Position numbers and translations under genes: made by a program. The notes under the pieces were generated by a model that was given only the letters and a program-made list of their open reading frames with translations, was not told where the DNA came from and made no database searches. From a virus (Duplodnaviria > Caudoviricetes), in IMG/VR virus record IMGVR_UViG_3300006922_000083, positions 1-34,116 of that record: DNA of 34,116 nucleotides. One strand, written 5' to 3'. How positions within the stretch are numbered: position 1 is the stretch's first letter; each line of letters opens with the position of its first letter. Positions 27,223 to 34,116 of the stretch are shown here, piece by piece.

Positions 27223-27768
27223 ATGCAGGAACATATGAGAAAGTTTAACAAACCAGAACCACGAACCCCCATTAACGCTCAGATACGTTATAACGAACTG
27301 AGAGTAGTTGACGAAAAAGGTCAACTGGGTGTAATGCACAAAAATCAAGCAATTAAAATTGCCGAGAGTAGAGGATTAGATTTAGTAGTAATAACTGAAT
27401 CTGCAAGACCTCCTGTCGCAAAGATTTTAGATGCGAATAAATATCTCTATGAACAAAAGCGGCGTGAAAAAGAACAAGCTAGAAAGCAACGTGAAAGCCG
27501 CATTGAGATCAAAGAGATCCAATTCAGACCTGGTATTGGTGATCATGACTTCGATACAAAATTAAAAAACATTGAAAAGTTTCTTTCAAAGGGAAACAAA
27601 GTTAAACTTATGGTACGTTTCAAAGGTCGGGAAAATGCCAATAAGCACTTGGGCTTTGATATACTTAATCGTGTAGCAGAGACACTTGAGGAAGTAGAAT
27701 GGGATGCAAAGCCTAGCTTAAACGGAAACCGACTTATAGGGATATTGAAACGAGGTAAAAATGGATAG
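27223..27768 (+). CDS. infC: translation initiation factor IF3
   Basis: INAQIR...GLDLVVI...PPVAKILD..KYLYE; KEIQFRPGIGDHDFDTK, GNKVKL, FKGRE; start is 27223 or 27235. Confidence 0.95.
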   Translation: MQEHMRKFNKPEPRTPINAQIRYNELRVVDEKGQLGVMHKNQAIKIAESRGLDLVVITESARPPVAKILDANKYLYEQKRREKEQARKQRESRIEIKEIQFRPGIGDHDFDTKLKNIEKFLSKGNKVKLMVRFKGRENANKHLGFDILNRVAETLEEVEWDAKPSLNGNRLIGILKRGKNG

Positions 27769-28009
27769 ACGACAAAAAAGATTTAATAATAATAATAAAT
27801 TTGAGGCTAAAGGCCTACACGTAGAAGTACACAACAATGATGTTAGTCGTGCACTGCGTAAACTAAAGAAAATGGTTAACAACGATGGCTTACTTAAAGA
27901 GCTACGTGATCGTGAATACTACGAGAAGCCCAGTCTAAAGCGCAAGAAAGCAAAGGCGGCTGCCCGTAAGCGGTGGTTAAAACAACAAGAAAAAAATACC
28001 AATAGATAG
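27761..28009 (+). CDS. rpsU: 30S ribosomal protein bS21
   Basis: ALRKLKK...GLLKELRDREYYEKPSLKRKKAKAAARKR. Confidence 0.93.
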   Translation: MDRRQKRFNNNNKFEAKGLHVEVHNNDVSRALRKLKKMVNNDGLLKELRDREYYEKPSLKRKKAKAAARKRWLKQQEKNTNR

Positions 28010-28010
28010 C

Positions 28011-28039
28011 TTGACAAACAGTACCGTATGTATTATATT
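28011..28039 (+). promoter_or_regulatory. sigma70-type promoter
   Basis: TTGACA-17nt-TATATT. Confidence 0.7.
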
Positions 28040-28176
28040 AGTATTACGATAAGAACTGCCACTCAATGCGCAAAAGCGTCAAGTGAGCATGATAAGAAAT
28101 ACAAATACAGAACTACGGGTTGCTACGAAATAAGCACGTGGTAGGCAATGGTTAGCCTACCGACACATAAATAACA

Positions 28177-28233
28177 GTGGATGCCAATTATGGGTCCGCA
28201 AATTAACATCTTGCTTAACAAAGGAGATATAAG
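28177..28233 (+). promoter_or_regulatory. ROSE-like RNA thermometer in the hsp20 5'UTR
   Basis: ATCTTGCTT-AACA-AAGGAGAT hairpin sequesters the SD with a bulged G (UUGCU motif); a second hairpin lies at 28177-28199. Confidence 0.7.
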
Positions 28234-28677
28234 ATGAATAGATTAACAACGATTGACTTAAATAAACTCACCCCCCACAGTGTTGGACTAGAAAGAATGT
28301 TTAACGACATGTTTAGATATGTTGAACATCCGCAAAACGCTGGATACCCACCATATAATATTGTGCAGGACGGTGAACGTTTCCAAATTGAAATGGCCCT
28401 TGCTGGTGTACAAATGGATGACGTTAATATTGAAGTCGCTGATGGAGTATTAACCGTTACTCATGACCCAGTAGAAATTACAGACAAACCTGAATCTGCT
28501 GTTAGATGGGTGCACAAAGGTATTGCACAACGTAAGTTTGACCGTAGCTTTACCCTTGCAGATGATGTAGTGGTACAGGGTGCGAGGATGGAAAACGGCA
28601 TGTTATACATAGAACTTGAGCGTATCATCCCAGAAGAAAAGAAACCTAGGAAAATAGAAATTTCATACGCAGGTTAA
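28234..28677 (+). CDS. small heat shock protein (Hsp20, IbpA-like)
   Basis: YPPYNI, IEMALAG, HKGIAQRKFDRSFTLAD, MENGMLYIEL, PEEKKPRKIEI. Confidence 0.95.
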   Translation: MNRLTTIDLNKLTPHSVGLERMFNDMFRYVEHPQNAGYPPYNIVQDGERFQIEMALAGVQMDDVNIEVADGVLTVTHDPVEITDKPESAVRWVHKGIAQRKFDRSFTLADDVVVQGARMENGMLYIELERIIPEEKKPRKIEISYAG

Positions 28678-28689
28678 TACAACAAATAT

Positions 28690-28716
28690 AAAAGGGGTGG
28701 TAACCTACCCCTTTTT
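28690..28716 (+). terminator. intrinsic terminator
   Basis: AAAAGGGGTGG...CTACCCCTTTTT. Confidence 0.75.
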
Positions 28717-28750
28717 ACTCTCAACAATTTAGTATAGTTTAGGTAAAGTA

Positions 28751-29050
28751 ATGAGCACAGAATTAGCATCGAAGATTGATACAACGTTTATATTTAAACG
28801 GCCTAAAAAGTACAAAGTCATTTTGATGAATGATGATTTAACTCCCATGGAGTTTGTAATTGAAATACTTATTGGTATTTTCAACAAAAGTTCAACCGAG
28901 GCACAAGAGATTACGTATGCAGTGCACCATAATGGTTCGGGCATTGCTGGTATATTCAATTATGAAGTAGCAGAGCAGAAAGCTCATGAAGCTACTAATA
29001 TTAGCAGAAACGCAGGTTTTCCGCTATCACTTAAATTAGAAGAAGAATAA
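28751..29050 (+). CDS. clpS: Clp protease adaptor ClpS
   Basis: [32 protein letters not shown]. Confidence 0.93.
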
Positions 29051-29051
29051 A

Positions 29052-30191
29052 ATGAGAATTGAAAACGAAATCCTTTTGGACTACAGCGATGTCTTGATTC
29101 GTCCAAAGCGTAGCACATTAGGTTCACGCAAAGAAGTAAATTTAGAACGTGAATTTATGTTCCGCAACTATAATAACCAAGACGTTATGGTTGGAGAATA
29201 TGATTGGAAAGGTGTTCCAATTATGGCAAGTAACATGGATGGTGTTGGTACATTTGAAATGGCAGACAAACTTGCTGAAGGACACATCTTTACGTGTCTA
29301 GTTAAAACATATAGTGAAAAAGATTTAATCAAATACTTTACATCTGATTTACCTGAGCGTAGTGACTTTGTTGCTATGAGTATCGGTATTCAGGACCGTG
29401 ACTTAAACAAATTTGAACAAGTATATGCGGAGTGTAAAGAAAATTTAAAATACGTTTGTATTGATGTGGCAAACGGATATAGTCAACGTTTTGTGGAGTT
29501 TGTGGGAGAATTTAAATTCCGCTTCCCCAAAGTAGTAATTATAGCAGGTAACGTAGTTACCGCAGATCAAACACAGGAGTTAATACTAAATGGAGCAGAT
29601 ATTGTTAAAGTGGGCATTGGTCCCGGGTCTGTTTGCACTACTAGGATTCAAACTGGTGTGGGATACCCGCAACTATCTGCGGTCATCGAGTGCGCTGATG
29701 CAGCACACGGACTTGGTGGTCACATCATTGCTGACGGTGGGTGTACTTGCCCTGGAGATGTCGCTAAGGCCTTTGCAGGTGGAGCAGATTTTGTTATGCT
29801 CGGTGGTATGCTTGCTGGCCATGATGAAGGCGGCGGCGAAGTAATTACTAAGATTTACGAAACTAATGAAGTGACTAAAACAGATGATGAATTCTTTGAG
29901 TCTGTTTATGAAGAAAAGCAGTTTATACAGTTCTACGGGATGAGTTCAGATGCAGCAAACACAAAACACTTCGGTGGACTTAAAGAATACCGATCAAGCG
30001 AAGGAAGAGAAGTTCTTGTTCCTTACAGAGGCTCAGTGGCTACCACTGCTCAAAATATATTGGGTGGCGTGCGTAGTACTTGTACTTATGTTGGAGCCAA
30101 TACACTAAAGCAACTTAGTAAGTGTACAACTTTTATTCGTGTAAACAATCAGTTTAATCGAACATACGAGTCTACAACAACTAAGATGTAA
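29052..30191 (+). CDS. guaC: GMP reductase
   Basis: [48 protein letters not shown]. Confidence 0.95.
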
Positions 30192-33317: not shown

Positions 33318-33394
33318 TGGTCGGAGTAGTAGGATTCGAACCTACGACCTTTCGCTCCCAAAGCGAACGCACTACCAGGCTGTGCTATACTCCG
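33318..33394 (-). tRNA. tRNA-Pro(UGG)
   Basis: CGGAGTA acceptor; anticodon arm TTCGC-TTTGGGA-GCGAA; GTTCGAAT T-loop; encoded CCA; 77 nt. Confidence 0.96.
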
Positions 33395-33398
33395 TAAT

Positions 33399-33472
33399 TG
33401 GCATCGGTGCAGGGAGTCGAACCCCGGCTTGCGGTTTTGGAGACCGCCGTGCTACCATAACACTTCACCGAC
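33399..33472 (-). tRNA. tRNA-Trp(CCA)
   Basis: GTCGGTG/CACCGAT acceptor; GCGGT-CTCCAAA-ACCGC; GTTCGACT; G73 and CCA; 74 nt. Confidence 0.95.
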
Positions 33473-33486
33473 ATAACTTTTTTTAA

Positions 33487-33562
33487 AACTACACTATCTT
33501 TGACCCTTTCGAGGTCTCTGTCTCTGCAAAGACACCTTATTGCAGTAAGGCGTAGTGTAGTC
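33487..33562 (-). ncRNA. candidate cloverleaf (4-way junction) structured RNA
   Basis: Closing stem ACTACACTA/TAGTGTAGT encloses three hairpins. Confidence 0.6.
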
Positions 33563-33564
33563 AT

Positions 33565-33599
33565 AAAAAAAGCCCCGTAACATTTCTACTACAGGGCTT
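33565..33599 (-). terminator. intrinsic terminator (attenuator 3:4 hairpin)
   Basis: AAGCCCTGTAGTA-GAAA-TGTTACGGGGC followed by T7. Confidence 0.85.
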
Positions 33600-33628
33600 G
33601 CAATGAGTAAGTTCGTTAAGAAGTCACA

Positions 33629-33685
33629 TCAAGGCATACCCCAGTTTCCTGGACACCAACTTGGTTTGTACATTCCTTGTAACAT
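33629..33685 (-). CDS. putative leader peptide MLQGMYKPSWCPGNWGMP
   Basis: AAGGAG SD 5 nt before ATG; promoter directly upstream; terminator downstream. Confidence 0.72.
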   Translation of the reverse strand: MLQGMYKPSWCPGNWGMP

Positions 33686-33707
33686 ATTAACTCCTTTGTT
33701 ATACTTA

Positions 33708-33738
33708 TATTTATACAGTAATCTTTTCAGTAAGTCAA
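33708..33738 (-). promoter_or_regulatory. promoter for the leader-tRNA operon
   Basis: TTGACT-17nt-TATAAA, overlapping TATAAATA. Confidence 0.75.
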
Positions 33739-33757: not shown

Positions 33758-33859
33758 TGGCTCCAGGGGGAGGATTCGAACCTCCACGGTTAAATACTTT
33801 GCGAGCTATTAACCACACGATAAACAGTCGTGCGTGTCTACCAATTTCACCACCCTGGA
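33758..33859 (-). tRNA. atypical tRNA-Asn(GUU) with long variable arm
   Basis: TCCAGGG/CCCTGGA-G-CCA; D-arm GGTGAAATTGGTAGACAC; CACGA-CTGTTTA-TCGTG; 30-nt variable region; GGAGG-TTCGAAT-CCTCC. Confidence 0.85.
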
Positions 33860-33864
33860 TCAAT

Positions 33865-34116
33865 TTATGCAGCCAGGGCAATCTTTCCTTGTTTGTCCAG
33901 TGCCGCAATCATTCTTGTCATACCAATACCGCCGCCTACTCTAGGAAAGAAGTCAAATTTTAGGAACTCTTCTAGTTCTGCTTCCACACGTTCTTTACCA
34001 AACAGTTTGTATAGTAACTGTGCATACTCGCCGTCTACAATACTATGGAATGTATCACGCATCATATCAACATCACAACTACGCTCTGCTGATCCAATAG
34101 TTTCCATACCACCTAG
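33865..34116 (-). CDS. class II aaRS catalytic-core homolog (Asn/Asp-tRNA synthetase-like or asparagine synthetase-like), C-terminal part
   Basis: GMETIGSAER and motif-3-like PRVGGGIGMTRM; frame is open to the window edge. Confidence 0.75.
   Translation of the reverse strand, partial: LGGMETIGSAERSCDVDMMRDTFHSIVDGEYAQLLYKLFGKERVEAELEEFLKFDFFPRVGGGIGMTRMIAALDKQGKIALAA

Follow-up and report, generated by a model that had tools for sequence, protein, structure and literature searches.

A putative leader-peptide attenuator upstream of tRNA genes in a marine phage and its relatives

Why phages carry tRNA genes is a long-standing question, and the main answers are codon bias and the replacement of host tRNAs that have been destroyed. 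The closest described regulators are the leader-peptide attenuators of amino-acid operons, including trpL, hisL, pheL, thrL, and ilvL of Escherichia coli and trpL/rnTrpL of S. meliloti, and the attenuator of E. coli pheST, in which a leader peptide responds to the level of charged tRNA and controls a synthetase. T-box riboswitches also contain a terminator/antiterminator switch that is set by tRNA charging; these bind the tRNA directly and involve no leader translation.

According to the accessible parts of two reports, the tRNA-Tyr of the T5-like phage SP15 counters retron-Eco7, which was ascribed to a strong promoter (PMC11555353), and Anabaena PCC 7120 has a horizontally spread, inducible tRNA L-array that stays silent as long as translation is not impaired (PMC8421152). 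The terms "attenuat" and "leader" have no occurrence in the accessible text of PMC11555353, PMC8421152, and PMC3556154, and a literature search that lay largely outside subscription journals and supplements found no description of a leader-peptide attenuator of tRNA genes. The element described here is real and conserved; sequence tests identify it as a putative trp-type attenuator that falls outside the trp-operon leader family and would govern tRNA genes.

The locus and its relatives

The window, which is the whole stretch of 34,116 nucleotides that was analyzed, is a 34-kb fragment of a large, uncultured marine phage. It contains genes for a primase, a helicase, a ribonucleotide reductase, and a DUF1127 protein, and the host was guessed from gene content to be an alphaproteobacterium. 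A host-like gene cluster on the + strand (27223-30191) encodes IF3, ribosomal protein S21, Hsp20, ClpS, and a GMP-reductase-like enzyme. The candidate attenuator lies on the - strand, downstream of a synthetase-like gene and an odd tRNA. The latter (33758-33859, - strand) has a GUU anticodon, with U in position 37, and its variable arm is long; ARAGORN miscalls it as Asp. The terminal part of a class II synthetase-like gene lies upstream of it (33865-34116, - strand); the homolog in locus L011 has 280 aa and PF00152 only. The pairing of such a gene with the odd GUU-anticodon tRNA was found again in many loci. The order of parts given by the initial annotation (promoter, AAGGAG, 18-codon ORF, terminator, structured RNA, tRNA-Trp, and tRNA-Pro) was recovered in full, with every part in place:

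33710..33738, - strand: predicted sigma70-type promoter (TTGACT at 33738-33733, 17 nt, TATAAA at 33715-33710)
33691..33696, - strand: Shine-Dalgarno AAGGAG, seen in the sequence; an AGGA-type motif belongs to the family rule
33671..33697, - strand: 5' strand of the outer protector helix (Shine-Dalgarno and start codon), pairing with 33636-33617
33629..33685, - strand: leader ORF of 18 codons, MLQGMYKPSWCPGNWGMP, with 2 TGG, 2 CCA, and 1 CCT; homologs in 76 distinct loci
33656..33658, - strand: Trp10 codon, conserved in relatives, putative sensor codon
33649..33653, - strand: segment 1, UCCAG (Cys11/Pro12 codons), pairing with the first bases of the G-run to form the inner protector hairpin
33634..33642, - strand: segment 2, GGGGUAUGC, 5' strand of the antiterminator, from pairing analysis
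33593..33601, - strand: segment 3, GCAAGCCCU, common to antiterminator and terminator, from pairing analysis
33564..33599, - strand: predicted intrinsic terminator, 3:4 hairpin of 13 bp and U-tract, from folding against shuffles
33487..33562, - strand: optional structured spacer RNA, predicted four-way junction, from folding against shuffles; no Rfam family
33399..33472, - strand: tRNA-Trp(CCA), from tRNA prediction
33318..33394, - strand: tRNA-Pro(UGG), from tRNA prediction

The leader promoter, whose -10 box has no final T, was not listed by a consensus promoter scan of the window; TTGAC..TAnnnT boxes were present at the equivalent site in 67/76 relatives. The initial annotation had named an independent promoter between the terminator and the tRNAs as a finding that would speak against attenuation. 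No promoter-like site lay there in the window, and among the long terminator-tRNA spacers of relatives only weak matches in 2/15 were detected. The enrichment of the leader in Trp and Pro codons that had also been claimed was borne out (5/17 codons, P=0.0012 against window codon usage, post hoc), except that W15 and P18 are excluded as positive sensors because they fall within segment 2 or on its border.

Relatives were first gathered by neighbor-gene searches and then by two pattern scans, each covering one half of the locus and blind to the other. The terminator-plus-tRNA scan recovered leaders without any selection for leaders. The leader-only motif, consisting of the leader end and the 5' arm of the terminator, gave 98 analyzable viral matches in 99 loci, and tRNA-Trp(CCA) was located downstream in 97/98 (56/57 distinct); the one exception was a GC-rich chance match. 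The Trp family was defined by the first tRNA, a short ORF led by a Shine-Dalgarno motif, and the terminator arm, with no criterion set on the Trp codon. It comprised 76 distinct loci, with leader homologs of 15-22 codons. An in-frame TGG was found in 75/76 of these loci, compared with 1 and 6 in the other two frames, so that the conservation of the Trp codon that the initial annotation had called for was confirmed; Trp was present in all leader peptides and TGG occupied the aligned position in 64/64 leaders. The distance from Trp to segment 2 was only 7, 10, 13, 16, or 19 nt in the 64 leaders, i.e., it changed in steps of three. A TGG that is invariant, in frame, and suitably spaced from segment 2 supports the proposed sensing of Trp. 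The conserved block before the stop codon was in frame with the start in 69/71 called loci. In three Trp-family members (L007, L167, and L280), the leader frame was shifted relative to this block, and the nucleotide motif was intact.

A scan of GTDB with the family motif returned 29 matches, none with a terminator and tRNA. Among the matches listed for cultured phages, the leader and spacer RNA of the Trp family had no match, and only the tRNAs and the synthetase-like gene were matched. Rfam searches, run with gathering as well as E-value thresholds, matched neither a leader nor a T-box nor a spacer family. Membership of the trp-operon attenuator family was rejected, given no match to Rfam Trp leaders and downstream genes that are tRNAs, as was membership of the T-box class, since Rfam and the alignment gave neither a stem I with a specifier loop nor a T-box antiterminator bulge.

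The conserved UGG could alternatively pair with the CCA end of uncharged tRNA, as in T-box sensing, instead of being read as a codon. The UGG-CCA-CC of many leaders does resemble the T-box motif UGGNACC. This explanation is nevertheless extremely improbable: there is no T-box match in Rfam and no room for stem I, the UGG shares its reading frame with the start and stop codons, about half of the leaders have UGG-UGC, and UGG is mostly absent from leaders that precede arrays without tRNA-Trp.

The spacer RNA of the window was more stable than its shuffles (z -3.93). The distance between terminator and tRNA was <=60 nt in 61/76 relatives, and spacers of >60 nt, of more than one type, were found in 15/76 loci; the spacer RNA is thus optional, and it is dispensable for the proposed switch. 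Of the viral matches to a spacer pattern, 28/29 lay between such a terminator and a tRNA block containing tRNA-Trp. Loop 1 of the spacer RNA, CUGCAA, could pair with UUGCAG. Homologs in RNA-library contigs of X1 and X2 were flanked by a tmRNA-like 3' end upstream and a tmRNA-like 5' end downstream, which we take to resemble the intervening segment of a permuted tmRNA. In the RNA-library runs, shares were all <=0.08 and contigs lay elsewhere than the leader ORF, and these runs therefore have no bearing on expression, ends, or habitat.

RNA pairings of the leader

The pairings 1:2, 2:3 (with one A.A mismatch), and 3:4 that had been proposed from the sequence are all present in the window. No shuffled sequence was as stable as the terminator (z -4.51; 0/200), and the leader region as a whole was no more stable than its shuffles (z -0.05). 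Only 0.55% of random window 20-mers formed a duplex as good as 2:3, and only 1.85% of random 30-mers matched the start:stop duplex (-14.1 kcal/mol). The window alone is suggestive, and the case against chance rests on conservation.

Helices were evaluated in 67 aligned leaders. Three frame-shifted or odd-tail loci and one with an N were dropped in helix tests, which left 64. In the 67 leaders, 94.3% of terminator cells were paired, and the terminator covaried, as seen from 28 double changes (0/500 shuffles). The antiterminator together with the inner hairpin was paired in 87.7% of cells, compared with 36-57% when slid. Of the covariation that the initial annotation had suggested checking, that of the terminator was clear, whereas that of the antiterminator within the family was weak (few double changes; score reached by 35/500 shuffles) because its core hardly varies. 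Within the family, antiterminator pairing was -14.18 with the own arm and -13.87 with a swapped one. In unrelated loci, which are described below, the upstream window paired at -13.4 kcal/mol with its own terminator arm and at -9.3 kcal/mol with that of another locus. Own-arm pairing was also found in the metagenome control set (p 1e-4), partly because some of its loci are leader-like although they did not pass the ORF rule.

Two protector helices compete with the antiterminator. The inner hairpin, proposed earlier as 1:2 (CCAG-GAAA-CUGG), holds beyond the window, forming in 62/64 relatives with a mean of -6.6 vs. -4.2 kcal/mol for shuffled sequences. The earlier protector scheme had missed the second, outer helix, in which the start codon pairs with bases after the stop codon. 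This helix covaried (25 double changes; 0/500 shuffles): AUG was combined with U in 50 leaders and GUG with C in 17, with no exceptions among the 67, and the start codon changed at least 13 times on the tree. In the window, it also covers the Shine-Dalgarno motif. No signal for a start:stop helix was obtained in unrelated leaders (p 0.10), which indicates that the helix is family-specific. From the full alignment, RNAalifold recovered nothing beyond the terminator and a 3-bp hairpin.

Masked folding, in which a ribosome mask was placed on transcripts cut in the terminator loop, predicted that segment 3 is paired upstream, as in the antiterminator, at 0.83 when the ribosome stalls at or before Trp, at 0.45 two codons further on, and at 0.13 four codons on. 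The drop persisted, shifted, with ribosome footprints of 6-15 nt. These values suggest that the invariant Trp is at about the last stall position that is able to open the antiterminator. With the ribosome at the stop codon, segment 3 was still paired upstream at 0.66 in the window, compared with 0.15 in the family, and with no ribosome the antiterminator reached 0.75 in the family vs. 0.16 in the window. The stop state of the window and the no-ribosome state of the family thus deviate from the textbook attenuator scheme.

In the full transcript at equilibrium, the terminator stood at 0.97-1.0 in every state, and since it wins at equilibrium, the choice of the switch must be kinetic. A terminator that dominates at equilibrium would also fit a constitutive terminator, or one bypassed by a phage antitermination factor, with the ORF being a small peptide or small RNA whose codons only reflect the help of the neighboring tRNAs in its translation; the accessible literature on S. 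meliloti rnTrpL and peTrpL indicates that attenuator RNAs and peptides can act in trans. However, the leader peptide is free to vary except for Trp, Pro/Cys, and the RNA-constrained tail, and 2/71 loci keep the nucleotide motif with a frameshifted tail. Complementarity between the G-run and the terminator arm is maintained (87.7% of cells paired, against 36-57% slid). We therefore regard this explanation as improbable and favor attenuation mediated by the ribosome.

Leader codons and downstream tRNAs

The correspondence between leader codons and tRNAs was evaluated in 54 distinct complete arrays, from five codons before to three after Trp, with Trp excluded. These arrays are the 76 family loci minus 15 with <300 nt downstream and minus duplicates; locus L233 was left out of both sets. 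Leader codons matched downstream tRNAs 132 times, compared with 93.1±5.7 in permuted data, and none of 20000 permutations reached 132. Leader codons therefore do change with the downstream tRNAs across relatives, which was a check proposed by the initial annotation. Because relatives share both traits, nearest-neighbor pairs that differ in tRNA set were also used; in disjoint pairs, the own tRNA set fitted better in 16, worse in 3, and equally in 8 (p 0.002).

Ile was the clearest case. AUA made up 28/31 Ile codons when tRNA-Ile(UAU) was downstream, compared with 15/54 otherwise, and at least two AUA codons were found in 9/10 leaders with tRNA-Ile(UAU) in the array vs. 2/44 without it. On a weak tree, the state of tRNA-Ile(UAU) changes six times or more. 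The independent pairs agree in direction, but number only four, and when amino acids were taken one by one, such tree-based pairs were too few to reach significance. In L028, L063, L238, and other loci, the downstream tRNA-Ile has 94 nt, a UAU anticodon, and a long variable arm, and the AUA codons of the leader match it. Cys codons tracked tRNA-Cys (29/29 vs. 18/25), Gly codons tracked tRNA-Gly (5/5 vs. 3/49), and Ser and Gln codons also tracked their tRNAs in the 54 arrays. Met (0/6) and Arg (2/6) codons did not.

Pro codons near Trp were present in 24/24 leaders with tRNA-Pro and in 27/30 without it (p 0.28). The initial annotation had taken Pro as a separate input, with Pro8 as a stall site; this part of the model was not supported, and Pro8 as a family-wide sensor was rejected, since Pro at the Pro8 position is no family trait in aligned relatives and Pro codons do not track tRNA-Pro. 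In 62/64 leaders, the G-run of segment 2 pairs with C's from the codons that follow Trp, which explains the Pro codons without Pro sensing; they probably serve RNA pairing.

Other loci with a terminator and tRNAs were also collected, in which the short ORF was picked by position and pairing and its codons were not looked at. In 29 viral loci outside the family, the matched fraction was 0.292 vs. 0.145±0.02, and in 14 viral loci that failed the short-ORF rule it was 0.065 vs. 0.052. The same rules applied to 118 metagenome loci gave 59 with terminator and tRNA (13 of the Trp family, 22 with a leader, 15 controls, and 9 without an ORF). The matched fraction was 0.325 vs. 0.150±0.024 in the 22 leader loci and 0.101 vs. 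0.095 in the 15 controls; the viral and metagenome samples are not fully independent, as at least three leaders recur. Many individual loci outside the family showed little codon-tRNA match. Wholly different leaders preceded Leu/Ser/Tyr, Gln, and Pro/Leu/Gln arrays. In the metagenome control set, attenuator-like leaders rich in Ala/Phe (L365) and Leu/Ser (L406) were found before a single detected tRNA (Asp and Cys, respectively), to which they are unmatched.

The layout occurs twice in the cultured phage phiCbK, each time as an ORF followed by an annotated terminator, the terminators being near record positions 49745 and 51465. The first ORF has 32 codons, is rich in Val, Gln, and Ile, and precedes Phe/Val/Ile/Gln tRNAs; the second, gp083, has 45 codons, is rich in Ser, Leu, Pro, and Lys, as well as in Ala and Thr, and precedes Pro/Lys/Leu/Ser tRNAs. 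Upstream of the tRNA-Phe, reading by eye revealed a tRNA-like gene that lacks an annotation and has the anticodon GUA (Tyr) (L490:11545-11630); Tyr tRNAs are stated to be absent from phiCbK in the accessible text of PMC3556154. Among 301 genomes of one bacterial phylum, six pattern matches were obtained, of which two had the layout, possibly of prophage origin. In one of these two bacterial assemblies, a Phe-rich leader precedes a lone tRNA-Phe (L338, G062:C25), and in the other, a leader layout precedes an 11-tRNA array beside a YitT gene (L337, G004:C45).

A translation-coupled attenuator could instead read general ribosome activity, such as slow elongation, pausing at Trp-Pro-Pro, or a shut-off of translation, and no specific tRNA. 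W-P-P and W-C-P contexts are indeed dominant with or without tRNA-Pro downstream, the family model without a ribosome favors the antiterminator, and general stress on translation reportedly switches on the tRNA array of Anabaena (PMC8421152). This explanation, which we consider unlikely, leaves unexplained both the tracking of synonymous codons (AUA with tRNA-Ile(UAU)) and the different leaders before Leu/Ser/Tyr, Gln, and Pro/Leu/Gln arrays.

Proposed mechanism and comparison with known systems

Several hallmarks of ribosome-mediated attenuators are present as predicted features: a short ORF led by a Shine-Dalgarno motif, cognate control codons, a 3:4 terminator, a mutually exclusive 2:3 pairing, and a competing protector. 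The parts, their conservation, and the pairings thus lend support to the attenuator layout that the initial annotation had claimed. We conclude that the leader is probably a ribosome-mediated transcription attenuator that exerts feedback control on tRNA supply, with Trp10 as the likely sensor codon. Host RNA polymerase would initiate at the sigma70-type promoter and be followed by a ribosome. When charged tRNA-Trp is ample, the ribosome would pass Trp10 and, while it is between about codon 12-13 and the stop codon, cover segment 2, the 3:4 hairpin would form, and transcription would end at about 33565. When charged tRNA-Trp is scarce, the ribosome would wait at Trp10 and cover segment 1, leaving segment 2, 13 nt further on, free; 2:3 would then form ahead of the synthesis of segment 4, and transcription would continue into tRNA-Trp and tRNA-Pro. 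In relatives, codons just before Trp may add inputs (Ile-AUA, Cys, Gly, Ser, and Gln). The circuit would operate as a homeostat of tRNA supply with negative feedback, because the product is the sensed molecule.

More tRNA cannot cure a shortage of amino acids, and by this reasoning tRNA loss, through cleavage by host defense or decay during infection, is tentatively suggested as a likelier selective trigger than amino-acid starvation. The rescue of infection from tRNA-cleaving defenses by phage tRNAs, as reported in the accessible text of PMC11555353, supports this reasoning. More broadly, many unrelated phages and some bacterial tRNA arrays could conceivably carry programmable codon sensors that are rewritten to match the downstream tRNAs, by which a phage detects the destruction of specific host tRNAs by defense nucleases and switches on the exact replacements; we put this forward as a possibility somewhat short of probable. 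If so, the leaders would be a readable record of the tRNAs that hosts attack. If the switch operates as proposed, phage tRNAs would be an on-demand reserve, the switch would name the tRNAs under pressure for each phage-host pair, and attenuation would reach beyond the supply of amino acids and act as feedback control on the adaptor molecule. Since a cultured phage, phiCbK, has the layout, the question can be tested directly.

The locus shares with the attenuators of amino-acid operons a promoter, a short ORF with control codons, a protector, an antiterminator, and an intrinsic terminator, as well as the position of the control codon immediately before segment 2; in both, there are also multivalent leaders that serve more than one amino acid. 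It differs from them in that the regulated genes are tRNAs, which are the sensed molecules, that it is encoded by a phage, that it has a single Trp codon and an extra helix between the start codon and the stop region, and that it matches no Rfam leader family. Both this element and E. coli pheST would control the translation apparatus by the level of charged tRNA, whereas the target of pheST is a synthetase and not tRNA genes. A terminator/antiterminator switch is shared with T-box riboswitches, whose own features are absent here. As in phage SP15, a phage tRNA would replace a cleaved host tRNA, although the accessible text ascribes the effect there to a strong promoter (PMC11555353). The Anabaena L-array is bacterial rather than phage-encoded, and the accessible text mentions no attenuator, leader, or terminator for it (PMC8421152), whereas the tRNA genes described here are preceded by a candidate for all three.
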